From: an uncultured Clostridia bacterium
GTDB lineage: Bacteria > Bacillota > Clostridia > TANB77 > CAG-508
Assembly (NCBI GenBank): GCA_934133005.1
Contig: CAKPAI010000001.1
Span: forward strand, 64,478 to 128,477
Reading direction: 5' to 3'
Length of the DNA: 64,000 nucleotides
Below, piece after piece: positions 1,797 to 40,670 of the stretch (position 1 is the stretch's first letter; every line of letters begins with the position of its first letter). The notes under the pieces were generated by a model that made no database searches, was not told the DNA's origin, and saw only the letters and a list, made by a program, of their open reading frames with translations. The position numbers and the translations under genes were made by a program.

Positions 1797-4028
1797 ATGG
1801 ATTTTAAACAATGGGAAGGCTTTGAAAAAGGCGAATGGACTAAAGAAATTGATGTAAGAAATTTTATTCAAAAAAATTACACACCTTACACAGGAAATGA
1901 AGATTTCTTAGCTCCTGCAACTGAAAAAACTTCAAAGTTATGGGATAAAGTACTAAATTTATATGAAAAAGAAAAGGAAAATGGTGTTTTAGATGTTGAT
2001 GTAAAAACTCCATCAGGAATAAATAGATATGAAGCTGGTTATATCGACAAAAACTTAGAAGATATCGTTGGACTTCAAACAGATGCTCCTTTAAAAAGAG
2101 CTATAATGCCAAATGGAGGTATTAGAATAGTTGAAAAATCATGCGAAGCTTATGGATACAAAGTTGATGATGAAGTTGAATATATTTATCACAATTTAAG
2201 AAAAACTCATAACGACGGTGTTTTTGATGCATATACTCCAGATATTAGAGCTGCACGTTCACATCACTTACTTACAGGTCTTCCAGATGGATATGGTCGT
2301 GGTCGTATAATTGGTGATTATAGAAGAGTTGCCCTATATGGTGTTGATGCTTTAATTGCTGAGAAAAAAGATGAACTTGACATTTTAGATGTTGATGAAT
2401 TTACAGAAGATGTAGTTCGTGACAGAGAAGAAATATCTGAACAAATTAGAGCTTTAGAAGATTTAAAGAAAATGGCTTCAAAATATGGATTTGATATTTC
2501 AGTTCCTGCTTCAAACTCAAAAGAAGCTGTTCAGTGGTTATATTTTGCTTACTTAGCAGCTACAAAAGATCAAAATGGTGCTGCAATGTCACTTGGTAGA
2601 ACATCTACTTTCTTAGATATATACTTTGAAAAAGACTTAAAATCAGGATTAATTACAGAATCAGAAGTTCAAGAAATTATGGATCACTTCATAATGAAAT
2701 TAAGAATGATAAGATTTTTAAGAACACCTGAATACAATGACTTATTCTCAGGAGATCCAGTTTGGGTTACTGAAAGTATTGGCGGTATGGGAATTGATGG
2801 AAGAACTTTAGTTACTAAAAACTCATTTAGAGTACTTCATACTCTAGAAACTTTAGGCGCTGCTCCAGAACCAAACTTAACAGTTCTTTGGTCAAAAAAT
2901 TTACCTACTGGATTTAAAAATTATTGTGCAAAAATTTCTATTAACACATCTTCTATTCAATATGAAAATGATGATTTAATGAGAATTACTTTAGGTGATG
3001 ATTATGGAATTGCTTGTTGCGTTTCAGCAATGAAAATTGGAAAACAAATGCAATTCTTTGGTGCAAGAGCTAACCTTGCCAAAGCACTTCTTTATGCTAT
3101 TAATGGTGGTAAAGATGAAAACACAGGAAAACAAGTTACTCCTATGTTTGCCCCTATCACTTCAGAATATCTAGACTATGATGAAGTTATGGCAAAATAT
3201 GACCAAATGCTTGATTATGTTGCAAAAATCTACATGAAATCATTAAATGCTATACACTACATGCATGATAAATATTCTTATGAAGCTTTAGAAATGGCTT
3301 TACATGACAGAAATATTTACAGAACAATGGCTTGTGGAATTGCTGGTCTTTCAGTTGTTGCAGACTCTTTATCAGCTATAAAATATGCAAAAGTTAAAGT
3401 TATTCGTGATGAAAATGGACTTGCTGTTGACTACAGTGTTGAAGGGGACTTTCCTAAATACGGAAATGACGATGACAGAGTTGATGAAATTGCTGTAAAC
3501 TTAGTAAAGAAATTTATGAAAAAATTAGAGGGCCATTATTCTTATCGTGGTTCTACTCCTACTCTTTCTATATTAACAATTACTTCAAATGTTGTTTATG
3601 GAAAAGCTACAGGAAACACACCTGACGGAAGAAGAGCTGGAGCTCCATTTGGACCTGGTGCAAACCCACTTCATGGAAGAGATACACAAGGCGCAATCGC
3701 AGTAATGAACACCATTGCCAAACTTCCTTATGAATATTCTGAAGATGGAATTTCATTCACATTCTCAATAACACCTGGAACACTTGGTCACGAATTAGAT
3801 ACAAGAGTTAGCAACTTAGTAGGAATGCTTGATGGATACTTTATGCAAACAGGACATCATATAAATGTCAATGTATTTGATAGAGCTTTATTACAAGATG
3901 CTATGGATCATCCTGAAAAATATCCTCAACTTACAATTAGAGTTTCTGGATATGCTGTAAACTTTGTAAAACTTACAAGAGAACAACAATTAGATGTTAT
4001 AAACAGAACAATTCATGAAAGAATATAA
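1797..4028 (+). CDS. pflB: pyruvate formate-lyase (formate C-acetyltransferase)
   Basis: 743 aa. C-terminal glycyl-radical motif RVSGYAVNF and an active-site CC region. RBS AAGGAGG. Confidence 0.95.
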
Positions 4029-4082
4029 ATTAATTTAAGGGGGCCTATTTCTAAGCCCCCTACTTTAAAAGGAGAACTTTAT

Positions 4083-4820
4083 ATGAGCACAGCAGAAAAT
4101 TCTACTTTAAAATGTCCCATCCACTCATTCGAATCGATGGGCGCAGTTGATGGTCCTGGTCTTAGATTTGTAGTGTTTACACAAGGTTGCAATCTTCAAT
4201 GCAAGTACTGTCAAAACAGAGATACTTGGACTCACTCTGGTGGAACTTTTTATACAGTAGATGAATTACTTGAAAAAATTTTAAGATATAAAAACTACTT
4301 TACCGCTTCTGGTGGAGGCGTCACAATAAGTGGTGGTGAACCTCTTATTCACATGCAATTTTTGATAGAATTATTTAAAAAGTTAAAAGAGCACAATATT
4401 CATACTGCAATAGACACTTCTGGGGTATTTTATTTGACACCTGGTATGATAGAACTTATCAATTTAACAGATCTATTTTTACTTGATATAAAATGTATAA
4501 ATGATGAAATTTGCAAAGATTTAACTTCTGTTTCAAACCAAAAAGAATTAGAATTTGCAAAATATTTAAGTTCTATTGGCAAGCCTATGTGGATTAGACA
4601 AGTCCTTGTTCCTGGCTATACAGATAAAGAAGAAGATTTGTTAAAATTAAAAGAATTTTTAGCAAGCCTATCATCTGTTCAAAAGGTAGAAATACTTCCA
4701 TACCATGACATGGGAAAACACAAGTGGCTCGAAATGGGCCTAACTTATCCTTTAGAAAGTGTTAGAGTTGCAAATTCAGATGATGTTGATAGAGCTAAAA
4801 AAATATTAGGCTTAAACTAG
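4083..4820 (+). CDS. pflA: pyruvate formate-lyase activating enzyme (radical SAM)
   Basis: CNLQCKYCQN CxxxCxxC motif, immediately downstream of pflB. A stem-loop (GGGGGCC..GCCCCC) lies between the two genes. Confidence 0.9.
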   Translation: MSTAENSTLKCPIHSFESMGAVDGPGLRFVVFTQGCNLQCKYCQNRDTWTHSGGTFYTVDELLEKILRYKNYFTASGGGVTISGGEPLIHMQFLIELFKKLKEHNIHTAIDTSGVFYLTPGMIELINLTDLFLLDIKCINDEICKDLTSVSNQKELEFAKYLSSIGKPMWIRQVLVPGYTDKEEDLLKLKEFLASLSSVQKVEILPYHDMGKHKWLEMGLTYPLESVRVANSDDVDRAKKILGLN

Positions 4821-8727: not shown

Positions 8728-9855
8728 TTAGCTCATATAATCTTTTAACTTTTTGCTTCTACTTGGATGACGCAATTTTCTTAATGCTTTTGCTTCTATT
8801 TGTCTTATTCTCTCCCTAGTAACTTGAAACTCTTTTCCAACTTCTTCTAGTGTTCTTGATTTTCCGTCTTCCAATCCAAATCTTAACTTTAAAACTTTTG
8901 CCTCTCTTGGAGTAAGTGTTTTCATAACCTCTTCCAATTGCTCTCTAAGTAAAGTATATGCTGCAGCATCTTGTGGTGCTGGGCTATCATCATCTTGTAT
9001 AAAATCTCCTAAATGACTGTCTTCTTCTTCTCCTATTGGAGTTTCCAAAGATACTGGATCTTGAGCAATTTTTTGTATTTCTGTTACTTTTTCAACACTA
9101 ATTTCCATTTCTTTTGCAATTTCTTCTGGGGTTGGTTCTCTACCTAGCTGTTGTAATAAGTGTCTTGATGTTCTAATTAATTTATTAATTGTTTCAACCA
9201 TATGAACTGGAATTCTTATTGTTCTTGCTTGATCAGCAATAGCTCTTGTAATAGCTTGTCTTATCCACCATGTTGCATAAGTACTAAATTTATATCCTTT
9301 AGTATAATCAAATTTTTCAACAGCTTTTATAAGTCCCATATTTCCTTCTTGAATTAGGTCTAAAAATAACATACCTCTTCCAACATATTTTTTTGCAATA
9401 CTTACTACAAGTCTTAAATTTGATTCGGCAAGTTTTTGTTTTGCTTCTTCATCTCCTGCTAAAACTCTCTTAGCAAGTTCTAGCTCTTCATCATAAGTTA
9501 AAAGTGGAATTCTTCCAATTTCTCTTAAATACATTCTAACAGGATCATCAATGTTTATTCCTTCCATATTAGATATATCTAAATCTTCTACTTTTACCTC
9601 ATCCATTGCTTCAAGGTCTTCAATATCAGGTTCATCTAAGTCAACATCATCATCTTTTAAAACGTCTACGCCTAAATTTTCAAAAGCATCAAAAACCTTA
9701 TCCATTTGATCTGTATTAGCATCATCTAATTCACTTGCAAGCTCAGCATAAGTTATTTTTCCTTTTTCTTTTGCCTTTTTAATTATGTCATGTACTTTAG
9801 CTTCTGCACTATTTTCTTCTTGAACTTCTACTTTTTTTTCTTCTTTATTATTCAT
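8728..9855 (-). CDS. rpoD: RNA polymerase primary sigma factor
   Basis: Sigma-70 regions 2-4 ([29 protein letters not shown]). Lies 16 bp downstream of dnaG. Confidence 0.95.
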
Positions 9856-9871
9856 TCAAACACATTCCTTC

Positions 9872-11689
9872 CTATTTCATCTTTGCAAGCTTAATTATTA
9901 TACTGTTAAGCTCTTCTTCTAAACTTGCCACTTCATTTTCTGCTAAATTTTGCTTCTGTGCTTCTGTAAGTTTATTTAAAATTTCTTTCCTCCTATTTAT
10001 AAGAAATTCTTTCCTATAGGATACAATTACATCTTCTATACATTTATCAACATCTGTTATTTCAAAATCTGATGACATTATTCCTGATAAATAATTTACC
10101 GTTTCATCATCTTCAAACATATCTATAAAGTTGTCAATACTAATATTTCCTTTTTCGGCTTCTTCATACAATTTATTTATTATTTTATTATTTATTTCAA
10201 GTTTTATTAATCCACTTTGCACAATATTTTTCATTTTTTCGAATGCTTTATCAGGATAATTTATGAGTAAATATATTATCAAGCTTTCAAGGCGTTTTGT
10301 TTTTTCATCAACATTTTCTTCTATATTATTTGCTAAATTCATACTAGTACTAGGCTTTATTTGAATAGACTTTTTCTCTAATCGTTGTTCAGCTCGATTA
10401 TTAGCATATAACAGTTTATTTATTTCAGCATATATTGCATCTTTTGAAATTTTGTACTCAAGAGATATTTTATCAACATATACTTCCCTTTCTATACTAT
10501 TTTCAACTTTTGAGAGTATCTTTGCAACTTCATTTAAAAATTTAATTTTATCATTTACTACATCTAAATTTAAATCTTTTTTTAGCATTTTTACTTTAAA
10601 TTCAACAAGAGAAATTGCTTGATCCATACACTTTTGAAATTTTTCTGGTCCATATTTTATGACATACTCATCAGGATCTTTTGCTCCCTGAATTTGAAGT
10701 ATTCTTATATCACATCCTAAATTATATAAAATTTCAAGTCCTCTTAATATTGCTGCTTGTCCTGCACCATCAGCATCATAGCCAATTATTACTTTTTCAC
10801 AACTTCTTCTTAAAAGTCTGCCTTGTGCTTCTGTTAATGCCGTTCCAAGAGAGGCAACCACATTATTTATTCCTCTTTGATGAAGAGAAATTGCATCCAT
10901 ATATCCTTCAACAATTAAAATTGTTTTAGGATTGTTCTTTTTAGCTACATTGTATGCAAATAAGTTTCTTCCCTTGCTATATACTATATTTTCTGGTGAA
11001 TTTATATATTTAGGTTTGCTATCATCTAAAACTCTTCCTCCAAATGCTATTACTCTATCCCTACTATCAAAAATTGGAAACATCAGTCTATTTCTGTATC
11101 TATCAATAAATTTTCCATCATCATTTCTATTTACTAAACCTGTTGCCAAAATTTCTTCATCTGAAAACCCTTGTTTTTTCAGCTCTAAATATAATTCGTT
11201 AAATTTTCCAGAATAGCCTATCTTAAAAGTTTTTAGAGTTCTATTATCTAACTTTCTCTTTTTTACATATTCTTGTCCCATTTTTGCCGTTGGTAAATAT
11301 AAATTTTGATGGTAAAATTCCGCTGCTACTTTATTTACTTCATAAACTCTTCTTTTTAATCTTTCTCTTCTATCATCAGCGTCACTAGTTGAATTAATAG
11401 GTAGTTCTACATTAACACGATTTGCTAATAGTTCTACAGCTTCTTTAAAATCAACATTTTCTATTTTTTGAACAAAACGAAAAACATTTCCACCAACTCC
11501 ACATCCGAAGCAATGGAATATTTGTTTATCTGGAGATACACAAAATGAACCCGATTTTTCCTTATGAAATGGACATAGCCCCATATAATTTCTACCAGAC
11601 CTTTTTAATACGACATACTCTGATACAATATCAATTATGTCGTTCTTACTTTTTATTTCGTCTAATAATTCGTCACTATATCTTATCAT
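9872..11689 (-). CDS. dnaG: DNA primase
   Basis: Zinc ribbon CPFHKEKSGSFCVSPDKQIFHCFGCG and a TOPRIM domain. Start chosen at MIRYSDELL (ATG 11689, RBS AAGGA) rather than the ORF-track start 11728. Confidence 0.9.
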   Translation of the reverse strand: MIRYSDELLDEIKSKNDIIDIVSEYVVLKRSGRNYMGLCPFHKEKSGSFCVSPDKQIFHCFGCGVGGNVFRFVQKIENVDFKEAVELLANRVNVELPINSTSDADDRRERLKRRVYEVNKVAAEFYHQNLYLPTAKMGQEYVKKRKLDNRTLKTFKIGYSGKFNELYLELKKQGFSDEEILATGLVNRNDDGKFIDRYRNRLMFPIFDSRDRVIAFGGRVLDDSKPKYINSPENIVYSKGRNLFAYNVAKKNNPKTILIVEGYMDAISLHQRGINNVVASLGTALTEAQGRLLRRSCEKVIIGYDADGAGQAAILRGLEILYNLGCDIRILQIQGAKDPDEYVIKYGPEKFQKCMDQAISLVEFKVKMLKKDLNLDVVNDKIKFLNEVAKILSKVENSIEREVYVDKISLEYKISKDAIYAEINKLLYANNRAEQRLEKKSIQIKPSTSMNLANNIEENVDEKTKRLESLIIYLLINYPDKAFEKMKNIVQSGLIKLEINNKIINKLYEEAEKGNISIDNFIDMFEDDETVNYLSGIMSSDFEITDVDKCIEDVIVSYRKEFLINRRKEILNKLTEAQKQNLAENEVASLEEELNSIIIKLAKMK

Positions 11690-38093: not shown

Positions 38094-38654
38094 CTATTTC
38101 AAATATTTCTTAAGGTCAATTTTCATATACTTATTTGAATTTGTTTTTAAACTTTCAATTAACTTGCTTTTTACAGTTTGTGCTAAGTTAAATTCTTTAG
38201 TAGTAATTACTTTTTCTTCTAAAGCTTCTTTTAATTCATTTTCGTCTAACACACTTATCATATTATTTTTTAGAATAACATCTATAAATAAATCCTCATA
38301 ATATGGTGAATTTACTTTAAAATCAAAACCATTTCTTAACGTAACATCAAAATAGTATAATATCACATTTTTTTCATTATCTACAAAAGCTCTAATACAA
38401 TAATTTTCATTTACTGGGACTATTTCTACTATAGTATAATTATTATCAATTAAACATCCACTGCTTGGTGTACAAAATGGTTCCTTAATAGTTATTATTT
38501 TTTTAATTGAAATATAGCAATTATTCTCTTTGTCTTCATAAAAATTGTACTCATATTCATCTACATTTTTTAAATATGTTGATGAAATATATTTTTTCTT
38601 AACGGTCATAATCGCTTCTTTTGTCATTTTCTCTTTCTTCTCTATATCTATCAT
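38094..38654 (-). CDS. DUF402 (Ntdp-like nucleoside tri/diphosphatase) family protein
   Basis: YYEDLFIDVIL motif. Start uncertain (ATG 38654 or 38627). Overlaps the NUDIX 3' end. Confidence 0.45.
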   Translation of the reverse strand: MIDIEKKEKMTKEAIMTVKKKYISSTYLKNVDEYEYNFYEDKENNCYISIKKIITIKEPFCTPSSGCLIDNNYTIVEIVPVNENYCIRAFVDNEKNVILYYFDVTLRNGFDFKVNSPYYEDLFIDVILKNNMISVLDENELKEALEEKVITTKEFNLAQTVKSKLIESLKTNSNKYMKIDLKKYLK

Positions 38655-39159
38655 ATTTATCAAGAACTCCTAGCATTTCATTAATTATGAATTCTCTTTT
38701 TTCAGCTTTAGCAACATCTCTATTGTTTTCTAAGGCTTCTCTTAATTCTTGATATGGAACATATTCAAGAGTAAAAACTTGTTTTGATTCATTTTCGTCT
38801 AATTGACGCTTATCTAAATCAATTGGTGCATCTGTCTTTCCATCAAGAAATTGTATTGTTGTAAAATAATTTAATCCTAAATTATAATAATTCTTTTCAA
38901 AACATTGTAATTTATAAAATGGAGCATTAAAGTTTCCTAATCTAACCGTTATTCCAGTTTCTTCTCTAACTTCTCTTTGTGCACAATCTAAAGCTCCTTC
39001 TCCTTCTTCAATATGTCCTCCTATAAAATTATAGACACCGTTTCTTTTGCATAATAAGACTTCATCTTTAGAATTCAATAAAATAACCTTTACTCTGTGT
39101 TGTTGTTTTTGAATATCAGCCATGGTTAAATTATGTAAGTTCACTGTTTCTACTTTCAT
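38599..39159 (-). CDS. NUDIX hydrolase
   Basis: Nudix box GGHIEEGEGALDCAQREVREETGI. Confidence 0.8.
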   Translation of the reverse strand: MKVETVNLHNLTMADIQKQQHRVKVILLNSKDEVLLCKRNGVYNFIGGHIEEGEGALDCAQREVREETGITVRLGNFNAPFYKLQCFEKNYYNLGLNYFTTIQFLDGKTDAPIDLDKRQLDENESKQVFTLEYVPYQELREALENNRDVAKAEKREFIINEMLGVLDKYDRYREERENDKRSDYDR

Positions 39160-39310
39160 TTCTGTCTCCTTTTTTCTAAAATTACATATTTTAGTATATC
39201 ACGCAAAAAGTTTTATGTCAATATGCTATAATTTATTGATTTATTCATAAAAGAGTGTTATAATATAGTCTCCGTACGTAACACACACATTTAGTAAAAG
39301 GAGATTGCAT

Positions 39311-40129
39311 ATGATCAAAATTCCTACTCATTCTCGGGAAAGGCATGATTTGCAAGAGTTCTTCTGTTTGCTTACAAAACGTTGCAACTCGAACTGCACA
39401 TTTTGCATCGAAAAGGAGGTTCATTCTGGCGGATTCATTACTTGGAGCAACTTTAAAAAGTCTGTTTCCTTCGCAAAAGAAAATGGTTTGAACAACTTCT
39501 TTCTTCACGGCGGAGAGCCCACGTTGCATCCGGATATCGTAAAATTTGCAGAATATGCAAAAGAACAAGGTCTCTGTGTAAAAATGTTTACTAACGGTCT
39601 TCGTTATGACGTTTTGAAGTCCCTCGACGGCATTGTCGATGAAATCAAAGTATCTTATCGGAGTGAAGCCGTTTCTTTCCGTTTTAAGCAGAGCGAATGG
39701 AAAACTAAGCTTTATCTTGGCATTCTTGCCACGGAAGATGAGTTTCCTACAGAACAGTGCTTGTTGAACTTTGTTCACTACGCACATGACAAAACCGGCA
39801 TGGAGGTTTACGTAAATACCATGAATCCTGTAAATCAGGGGTCCTACGCAAACCAGTATGTTTCCTATCTTGAGGATAAGTTCCTCTCTCTTCCCCTTGA
39901 TGAGATTTTCTCTTCCTATCACAAGGCAGGTTTCTACCTTAGTGATGGAACAAGGGTTCGGATGGGCAACAAATCCATGAATCCCGGTCATCCCAAGTAC
40001 AGCATGGACCCTGATGGTCAAATTCACGACCACTTTGATCACGCTACCGCGTCTATCAAGCACGACGAGAAGCTTGATCTGCTCTTGGCCCCCGGTAAGG
40101 CACGCTTAGAGATTTTGAGATCTCTGTAA
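39311..40129 (+). CDS. radical SAM protein (single CxxxCxxC cluster, GGEP motif), GC-anomalous
   Basis: RCNSNCTFC and FLHGGEPTLHPD motifs. Start set at ATG 39311 after AAGGAG. Local GC is clearly higher than the surroundings. The antisense ORF 39245-40063 is rejected. Confidence 0.7.
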   Translation: MIKIPTHSRERHDLQEFFCLLTKRCNSNCTFCIEKEVHSGGFITWSNFKKSVSFAKENGLNNFFLHGGEPTLHPDIVKFAEYAKEQGLCVKMFTNGLRYDVLKSLDGIVDEIKVSYRSEAVSFRFKQSEWKTKLYLGILATEDEFPTEQCLLNFVHYAHDKTGMEVYVNTMNPVNQGSYANQYVSYLEDKFLSLPLDEIFSSYHKAGFYLSDGTRVRMGNKSMNPGHPKYSMDPDGQIHDHFDHATASIKHDEKLDLLLAPGKARLEILRSL

Positions 40130-40137
40130 TATCTTTT

Positions 40138-40171
40138 GCAGGTTGGTGAGCACTTCACCAACCTGCTTTTT
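40138..40171 (+). terminator. rho-independent terminator of the radical SAM gene
   Basis: GCAGGTTGGTGAGCACTTCACCAACCTGC followed by TTTTT. Confidence 0.7.
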
Positions 40172-40175
40172 ATTT

Positions 40176-40670
40176 TTATATTAATACAGAAGTGACATGT
40201 ATTGGAATTATATTATTTTTTCCAAGTTTCTGAACTTTTAGCAAATTTCTAACATCATCATCAATAAAAATAATTATATTTGAATTTACACTTACATTTG
40301 ACAAATATTCTGCCTTTACAATATCGCTATTTTCATTGCAATACTCACCATTTTCTTTTGAAAAAATAATTCTATCTTCATTACATATATATGGAATATA
40401 TTTATCAATCCATTCATTTTTTTCTTTTTTCATCTGATTTGTACCAGCACAACTTAATATCTTAAATTTAATTAGTGGATACTTTCCCTTTATTTTTTTC
40501 ATAATGTCAAGTATTGGTCTAATAGGCTTTTTCTTTAAGTATTCTCCGTCTTTCAAAAAATTATTGTCATTATCTAATAAAAATTCAACAATAGTTCCAT
40601 CCATATCTAAATAAATTTCAATATTCTTGTTTTTTTGATATATGCTATTTATTTTACTGCAAAAATCCAT
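40176..40670 (-). CDS. HAD-family 5'(3')-deoxyribonucleotidase-like protein (NT5C)
   Basis: DMDGTIV (DxDGT) motif and FIDDD. Confidence 0.55.
   Translation of the reverse strand: MDFCSKINSIYQKNKNIEIYLDMDGTIVEFLLDNDNNFLKDGEYLKKKPIRPILDIMKKIKGKYPLIKFKILSCAGTNQMKKEKNEWIDKYIPYICNEDRIIFSKENGEYCNENSDIVKAEYLSNVSVNSNIIIFIDDDVRNLLKVQKLGKNNIIPIHVTSVLI

Follow-up and report, generated by a model that had tools for sequence, protein, structure and literature searches.

The window analysed here, a stretch of 64,000 nucleotides from contig CAKPAI010000001.1 of an uncultured Clostridia bacterium, carries a gene for a 272-residue radical S-adenosylmethionine (rSAM) enzyme. It stands at the core of a cassette whose genes are inherited together, DUF402 ← NUDIX ← / → rSAM / ← HAD, in which it diverges from an operon for two predicted nucleotide hydrolases and converges with a phosphatase-like gene (Table 1). 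In the window the cassette stands among housekeeping and sporulation genes. A preliminary description of the same DNA had taken the rSAM gene, which is rich in guanine and cytosine (GC), for a horizontally acquired single-gene island. Its reading of the frame itself was right: the 819-bp open reading frame (ORF) encodes a single-cluster rSAM protein with three invariant cysteines, and the Pfam model Radical_SAM (PF04055) matches it with 49.8 bits against a cutoff of 29.5, over residues 23-108 only. The mechanical ORF list starts the frame further upstream, at a TTG at 39305.

The gene also has the Shine-Dalgarno (SD) sequence and the private terminator that had been described for it. Two promoter-like sites lie back to back, one directed toward the rSAM gene and the other toward NUDIX. 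The TATAAT and TTGA elements of the first are kept in an alignment of six relatives, and the -35 element of the second (TTATGTCAA on the + strand) is invariant in six relatives. The terminator hairpin is kept in the related loci L019, L001 and L015, with compensating changes. Between the rSAM -10 element and the SD (39266-39290, alignment columns ~143-160) there is a near-palindrome, TGTGTGTTACACACA, which is clear in the same three loci and of which the window keeps part; it could be an operator or a hairpin of the 5' untranslated region. Within the rSAM gene, no long inverted repeats were found other than the terminator, and the search for known RNA families in and around it gave two sub-threshold chance matches only. 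The 272-residue antisense frame is spurious, as had been supposed: in relatives of lower third-position GC (GC3) the same frame is closed by 10-25 stops, which rules it out as a real gene, and in the window it is open because the sense gene avoids TTA, CTA and TCA codons.

Table 1. Position of the rSAM gene, its expression signals and its neighbours in the window
Feature	Position	Strand	Remarks
DUF402 gene (Ntdp/FomD-type)	38094..38654	-	Predicted nucleoside di/triphosphate hydrolase; PF04167, 38 bits against 23.9
NUDIX hydrolase gene	38599..39159	-	PF00293, 66.2 bits against 21.1; first gene of the divergent hydrolase operon
Promoter-like site, NUDIX-DUF402 operon	39193..39221	-	TTGACA-17-TATACT with TG
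Promoter-like site, rSAM gene	39236..39264	+	TTGATT-17-TATAAT with TG (extended -10); near-consensus
Antisense ORF	39245..40063	-	272 aa
SD of rSAM gene	39298..39303	+	AAGGAG, 7 nt ahead of the ATG; sequence reading
rSAM gene	39311..40129	+	819 bp including stop, 272 aa, ATG start; GC 0.433, GC3 0.48
Intrinsic terminator, rSAM gene	40138..40176	+	Perfect 12/13-pair stem (40138-40166), 3-nt loop, T tract
HAD-superfamily phosphatase-like gene	40176..40670	-	Motifs DMDGT, ILSC, IDDD; convergent on the rSAM gene

The flanking genes had been described as coding for nucleotide hydrolases. This stands for DUF402 and NUDIX, whose Pfam matches lie above the cutoffs. The more specific assignment of the convergent gene to the NT5C-type 5'(3')-deoxynucleotidases was rejected, with PF06941 reaching 12.3 bits against 24.8 (E 0.15); from its motifs, membership of the HAD superfamily only is plausible. 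The NUDIX translation holds a complete Nudix box, GHIEEGEGALDCAQREVREETGI (consensus GX5EX7REUXEEXGU), and in NCBIfam the protein reaches no specific equivalog. The start of DUF402 in the window is uncertain: the mechanical ORF reaches 38663, and the gene called in the identical contigs L012-14 has 186 aa. As called, the NUDIX and DUF402 frames overlap by at most 56 nt (38599-38654). The overlap is 4-14 nt in L004 and L001, which suggests translational coupling.

The rSAM family and its cassette across lineages

The enzyme belongs to a compact rSAM family that has no name of its own. A single-sequence search gave 56 clusters and a profile search 156, with six representatives at 50% identity, and the listing names the members "radical SAM protein" only. 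We found no literature describing the family. Look-ups in genomes and metagenomes yielded about 37 distinct lineages, nearly all of them low-GC (24-31% GC) uncultured gut Clostridia, including one closed HiFi chromosome.

The CX3CX2C cluster (C25, C29, C32) and the SAM motif H66-G67-G68-E69-P70 are invariant in 45 sequences. Family members have four to seven cysteines, of which three are invariant. A fourth, in the motif IFCASNK, is present in 86% of them; in the window protein it is Ser201 (IFSSYHK, about 39911-39913). Since only three cysteines are invariant there is no auxiliary cluster, and SPASM/twitch membership was rejected. MoaA was rejected as well, because its models TIGR02666 and TIGR02668 give 36.5 and 42.7 bits against cutoffs of 284 and 325, and the auxiliary cysteine triad is missing. 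The curated models of all other named rSAM families score far below their cutoffs. The search with hidden Markov models (HMMs) and structures, which the preliminary description had proposed, thus reached no named family, viperin and MoaA included, and its best matches are rSAM enzymes acting on nucleosides or nucleotides. Among solved structures, the profile matches are AbmM (8wm2, 4e-10) and BlsE (7vob, 1e-8), the latter also matching by fold (1.6e-7) with the AlphaFold2 model of the protein, which has a predicted local distance difference test score of 95.5. Further fold or profile matches are viperins (template modelling score, TM, ~0.6), MoaA and QueE, and the fold likeness to viperin is no better than that to BlsE or MoaA. 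The C-terminal half contains the invariant basic residues K205, R217, K221, H227 and K229, which would suit phosphate binding without proving it.

DUF402 adjoins the rSAM gene in 30 of the about 37 lineages. There are three arrangements, DUF402 ← NUDIX ← / → rSAM (A), rSAM → DUF402 → PHP (B) and DUF402 → rSAM (C). NUDIX accompanies the rSAM gene in 12 lineages (clade A, divergent), a PHP phosphoesterase in eight, and a HAD-like partner in at least seven lineages of two clades. HAD homologues adjoin rSAM in the window and in L019, the L021/L046 group, L024, L051, L061, L066-68, L031 and L033. The functional link to nucleotide hydrolases that had been proposed is supported by this recurrence of DUF402, NUDIX, HAD and PHP. 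Clade C has long DUF402 ORFs of 320-366 aa (L039:806-1906, L033:793-1758, L035:4913-5875), and the N-terminal part of the L039 ORF matches a GNAT acetyltransferase, reflecting either a fusion or an over-extended ORF call.

The members of the cassette have diverged together. The identity matrix of rSAM correlates with that of DUF402 (r 0.94) and with that of NUDIX (r 0.93; Mantel p<=0.0005), and nucleotide divergence between L046 and L051 is even along the whole cassette. Homology among the window, L019, L001 and L015 extends into the AT-rich flanks, where the promoter region, the terminator and the 3' end of the HAD gene can be aligned. The exact window protein is encoded on 116 contigs, the longest of 567 kb, with identical context in every one read. 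At strain level, the near-identical loci compared had no single-nucleotide polymorphisms in the cassette. The rSAM gene already stood at its present position in the ancestor that the window lineage shares with its relatives.

Some loci have further neighbours of a mobile or conflict type. Two ToxN toxin genes lie near the cassette in L001 (7687-8256 and 13585-14121), and an integrase/Fic/RepA_N element lies beside it in L015 (1028-4645), where DUF402 is shortened to 36 aa. In L016, fragments of a DDE transposase adjoin the cassette (8849-10353).

Predicted function of the cassette

The cassette is probably a variant of the small rSAM nucleotide/nucleoside pathways, built around an uncharacterised enzyme family. 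NUDIX enzymes hydrolyse nucleoside diphosphates linked to another group (NDP-X), and HAD and PHP enzymes remove phosphate. Among DUF402 enzymes, Ntdp, FomD and SC4828 hydrolyse nucleoside diphosphates (NDP), nucleoside triphosphates (NTP) or cytidine monophosphate (CMP) conjugates, and the DUF402 domain of archaeal RNase W is an RNase (PMC11602121). Because the partner families hydrolyse NDP, NTP and NDP-X, and because the nearest solved relatives are nucleoside or nucleotide rSAM enzymes, the rSAM substrate is probably a nucleotide or a nucleotide-linked small molecule. The enzyme would apply SAM-derived radical chemistry to an NTP, an NDP or such a linked molecule; DUF402 and NUDIX would then split the pyrophosphate bonds of the product, and the HAD phosphatase (PHP in another clade) would take off the last phosphate, giving a modified nucleoside. 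The hydrolases may also, or instead, stop an active triphosphate from poisoning its producer, as ThmC does.

ThmC belongs to the 4'-thiothymidine cluster ThmABC of Photorhabdus, which consists of an rSAM enzyme, a kinase and an NTPase for self-resistance (PMC12691670). Like the cassette, ThmABC is a minimal cluster of a small rSAM and nucleotide-handling enzymes, and its end product is a free modified nucleoside; ThmA and the window rSAM are likened here by cluster logic, not by sequence. It differs in having the nucleoside kinase ThmB where the cassette has DUF402, NUDIX and HAD, in its hosts, which are Enterobacterales and not Clostridia, and in having no reported composition anomaly. Fosfomycin biosynthesis offers another parallel: the rSAM enzyme Fom3 acts on a CMP-linked substrate (PMC9088020), and the DUF402 enzyme FomD then removes the nucleotide handle (as cited in PMC11602121). 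However, Fom3 is a large cobalamin-dependent methyltransferase, whereas the window enzyme has 272 aa and no B12 domain, and the cassette lacks phosphonate genes and a cytidylyltransferase; an NTP_transferase fusion occurs only in a sister family, whose fused members lie in an NDP-sugar-like cluster. AbmM of the albomycin pathway and BlsE of the blasticidin S pathway, which match best among solved structures, act on a cytosine nucleoside or nucleotide, but their gene clusters differ from the cassette, and the C-terminal half of the window rSAM family is unmatched. The MoaA GTP 3',8-cyclase has the N-terminal core in common and an NTP as substrate, but a second cluster is impossible in the window family with its three invariant cysteines.

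At another sister locus, L072 (1168-8522), the rSAM gene is divergent from a HisPhos-NUDIX fusion, and the cluster also holds dCMP-deaminase-like, methyltransferase, AAA_33 kinase-like and DUF362 genes along with two further rSAM genes, which together suggest a larger pathway of nucleotide modification. Both sister-family contexts speak for a nucleotide substrate of the window enzyme, as does the precedent of ThmABC.

Viperins deserve separate treatment, as the preliminary description had named them as one possibility. According to this proposal, the enzyme would be an antiviral synthase of 3'-deoxy-3',4'-didehydronucleoside triphosphates (ddhNTP), and the cassette an anti-phage defence. Viperins and their prokaryotic counterparts (pVips) resemble the window enzyme in their single cluster, their length and their partial TIM barrel, and they act on NTPs; viperin structures are among the fold matches (TM ~0.6), the PADLOC pVip HMMs give 55 and 44 bits, the NUDIX gene weakly matches the PADLOC candidate PDC-S07, and ToxN genes are close by in L001. 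Yet the alignments, including those to PADLOC pVip, are confined to the generic N-terminal core. The NCBIfam viperin model (NF038283) reaches 39 bits against a cutoff of 180, over residues 21-118 only, and family membership is thus not supported; BlsE, MoaA and AbmM match as well or better. The viperin motif is N-hydrophobic-H-X4-CX3CX2CF, with N-x-H four residues ahead of the first cluster cysteine. The window family reads F-(C/V)-L-L-T-(K/Y)-(R/Q)-C-N-x-x-C-x-(F/Y)-C-I-E at this place, without the N or the H. Moreover, pVips are accompanied by nucleotide kinases whereas the cassette partners are hydrolases that destroy NTPs, and the surroundings of the window cassette are housekeeping and sporulation genes, not a defence island. 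A viperin-type defence is decidedly unlikely, and a nucleotide-acting enzyme of another type remains our preferred description.

Origin of the GC excess

The claim that the rSAM gene exceeds its neighbours in GC is confirmed by windowed statistics. Its GC of 0.433 compares with a mean of 0.294 (sd 0.031) for 819-bp windows of the 64 kb, giving z = 4.55; only 0.11% of these windows match the value, and every one of them overlaps the gene. Its GC3 is 0.48, against 0.11-0.23 (mean 0.16) in the 45 other ORFs of the window. The anomaly is one of synonymous sites, since first- and second-position GC (GC1, GC2) are ordinary. Host-preferred codons are almost unused (ATA 0, TTA 1, CCA 0, TCA 0, AGA 1), and codons that each make up at most 1% of their amino acid's background codons recur (CGG x3, CCC x5, TCC x6, CTC x4), as does ATC (x5), which is 5% of its amino acid's codons in host background genes. 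Genes on the + strand of the window mostly have T3 > A3, and those on the - strand A3 > T3. Avoidance of A as the primary signal was rejected for this reason: it is largely a minority-strand effect, as other + strand genes share T3 > A3, and the remaining shift is symmetric. The highest background GC3 in the window, 0.23, is that of a second rSAM gene, which resembles an activase and adjoins a pyruvate formate-lyase-like gene (1797-4820, judged from N-terminal sequences only).

The excess is a property of the family. Of 32 distinct loci, 27 have their highest local GC3 in the rSAM gene, against a background of 0.155 (sd 0.046) over 279 ORFs. Its GC3 ranges from 0.16 to 0.62 among lineages (0.62 in L023, 0.54 in L033, 0.53 in L022), and the partner genes are host-like (0.07-0.26). 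Sister families have no comparable GC3 elevation. Only one other credible outlier was found among the background ORFs. It lies in another rSAM-bearing genome (L034:893-1498, +), immediately ahead of a dUTPase gene, encodes 201 aa without a Pfam match and has a GC3 of 0.45.

Between close relatives the value shifts quickly. It is 0.48 in the window, 0.35 in L019 (89% amino-acid identity) and 0.27 in L001 (82%). Window and L019 differ at 58% of the four-fold sites of the rSAM gene, and where the residue and the first two codon bases are equal, the third position differs in 48% of cases in rSAM, against 18% in NUDIX. Under AT-biased mutation, we would expect a neutral GC excess to fade several times faster than synonymous sites at equilibrium diverge. 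As the synonymous sites have been turned over with respect to L019, a neutral excess left by transfer should have decayed.

This bears directly on the idea of a recent acquisition, or of replacement of rSAM alone by a foreign allele from a GC-richer donor, with its GC not yet ameliorated. The idea draws on the GC3 of 0.48 against 0.16 and the codon set foreign to the host, on amino-acid usage, GC1 and GC2 moving with GC3 and on a synonymous divergence above that of the partners, and also on the varied chromosomal contexts, with insertion sequence or integrase elements adjoining in some lineages, and on the mismatched L071 gene described below. Against it, the gene occupies the same place in relatives, between AT-rich flanks that are homologous, whereas an island would be recognized by absence from that site, by insertion scars or by a phylogeny discordant with the neighbours. 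Syntenic conservation in relatives is also one of the findings that the preliminary description had named as refuting its reading. The rSAM divergence is congruent with that of NUDIX and DUF402 (Mantel r 0.93-0.94), and high GC3 recurs in nearly every lineage. An anomaly in 27 of 32 lineages from three clades would call for many precise independent replacements, and the GC is even to both ends of the coding sequence, without a mosaic. All family members found are in low-GC hosts, and none in phages. A search for a GC-rich reservoir in viruses gave 0 phage matches and one weak IMG/VR match (32% identity over 68 residues), and the only plasmid copies found were 30%-identical genes of Vibrio megaplasmids. 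One of these encodes a 244-aa rSAM, 30% identical over 81% of the query, on the V. parahaemolyticus plasmid NZ_CP062152.1 (L070, 786419-787153); the Vibrio rSAM-bearing replicons are of ~880-940 kb and annotated as plasmids, with the rSAM gene amid small hypothetical genes that have no Pfam matches. The single-gene island of the preliminary description is therefore not borne out, transfer or foreign-allele replacement is decidedly improbable, and we infer that the high GC is not a transfer scar and is maintained in place.

A local neutral process could also keep GC high in place, be it a mutational bias specific to the gene or a recombination hot spot with GC-biased gene conversion. The third-position shift is symmetric, as such a process would have it (slopes A -0.56, T -0.44, C +0.48, G +0.52), amino-acid usage and the first two codon positions move with it, and the synonymous rate exceeds that of the partners. 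However, in seven loci the GC step tracks the transcription unit within ~50 bp, which is not expected of conversion tracts. Nor does GC3 show the patchiness along the gene that such tracts would leave, as no autocorrelation was found, and the co-transcribed DUF402 genes of clades B and C are little or not affected. The folding excess over dinucleotide-preserving shuffles (see below) would also be left unexplained. We consider a neutral origin quite improbable. A count by parsimony of AT->GC and GC->AT changes along the terminal branches was set aside, because the NUDIX control shows an equal AT->GC excess and the method is composition-biased.

Folding of the rSAM message and its meaning

Most of the rSAM coding sequences fold more strongly than their codon content predicts. 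Against synonymous-codon shuffles, the mean folding z is -4.0 in 18 lineages (-0.6 to -8.6), compared to -0.43 in 18 control genes that include NUDIX and DUF402 (Mann-Whitney U test, p 4e-6). The excess persists after shuffling inside 25-codon blocks, and with dinucleotide-preserving third-base shuffles the mean is ~-3.4 against -0.65 in controls. Clustered GC3 is not its cause, as GC3 is not clustered along the gene. The excess is equal or larger on the sense strand in six of nine rSAM genes, and it is spread along the gene, the summed z of 120-nt windows being negative in 27 of 30 lineages. The density of minimum free energy (MFE) is -0.21 to -0.36 kcal/nt in rSAM genes and -0.12 to -0.21 in other genes. 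For the window copy it is about -0.28 kcal/nt against -0.14 to -0.21 in the neighbours, a difference mostly due to GC itself. The pressure behind the GC-rich codons is most likely selection for a stable, strongly folded mRNA, on correlative evidence, and we rank this explanation above throttling by rare codons, repeated replacement of alleles and biased conversion.

Rare-codon throttling would mean that GC-ending codons are selected for their rarity, so as to throttle or condition translation of a potentially toxic enzyme, with RNA structure secondary. There is a precedent for rare-codon control in the TTA codons and bldA of Streptomyces. The window gene is indeed rich in the rarest codons of its host, as listed above, and its strong promoter and SD mean that control may sit at translation. 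But a GC3 that varies from 0.16 to 0.62 among lineages is an inconsistent constraint, GC3 has no positional pattern along the gene, and rarity does not predict a codon arrangement that stabilises folding. Such throttling is unlikely, and mRNA structure remains the preferred explanation.

Joined with the functional argument, this gives a reading to which we assign about an even chance: a co-inherited cassette whose rSAM enzyme acts on a nucleotide, and whose GC-rich codons are kept for a folded mRNA. The high GC would then be kept in place by a pressure on synonymous sites of the rSAM gene alone. Several observations weigh against it. The window copy has a weak folding z (-2.0 globally, -1.0 with dinucleotide-preserving shuffles and -0.5 in summed local windows), MFE values are only rough for RNAs of 800 nt, and the controls are few. 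Conserved base pairing was not found in 11 clade-C genes, where RNAalifold gives a consensus of -35.7 kcal/mol with covariation contributing -3.4; selection would therefore have to act on foldedness in general, an unusual target. Amino-acid composition varies with GC3 (rho -0.64), as do GC1 and GC2 (rho 0.64 and 0.48), as mutational or gene-conversion pressure also predicts, and synonymous divergence of the rSAM gene is 2-2.5 times that of the partners, which is compatible with a partly separate history. In a sister family, the NTP_transferase-rSAM fusion gene L071:281-1690 has a GC of 0.35 among NDP-sugar-type genes of 0.50-0.54, and this clear mismatch, opposite in direction, probably reflects transfer. 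On the side of function, identity to characterised enzymes is 14-17%, and the sequence match is limited to the generic N-terminal ~100 residues.

The contrast between the messages of the cassette can also be read as a toxin/antidote-like switch acting through mRNA stability, a very improbable proposal. The rSAM enzyme would make a toxic nucleotide (a chain terminator or an antimetabolite) that the hydrolases normally destroy. Its GC-rich, tightly folded message would be long-lived, and the AU-rich, nearly unstructured messages of NUDIX, DUF402 and HAD would be short-lived, so that if transcription ceased, as in phage infection, those of the antidote would vanish first and the toxic nucleotide would accumulate. 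If this were true, the gene-specific GC island would be part of the mechanism and not a mark of foreign origin.

The rSAM gene thus bears a strong GC and codon anomaly confined to a single gene, the classic signature of transfer, and yet it is co-inherited with AT-rich partners and bears this anomaly in almost every lineage. If, in a genome of 29% GC, selection on synonymous sites (for instance for mRNA folding) can lift the GC3 of a single gene from 0.15 to 0.5-0.6, island callers based on composition would misread such genes. The cassette defines an uncharacterised rSAM family in abundant uncultured Clostridia of the human gut. Its partners point to a modified nucleotide or nucleoside as the product, a class that includes antivirals (ddhCTP, the cytidine form of ddhNTP) and antibiotics (4'-thiothymidine, albomycin).

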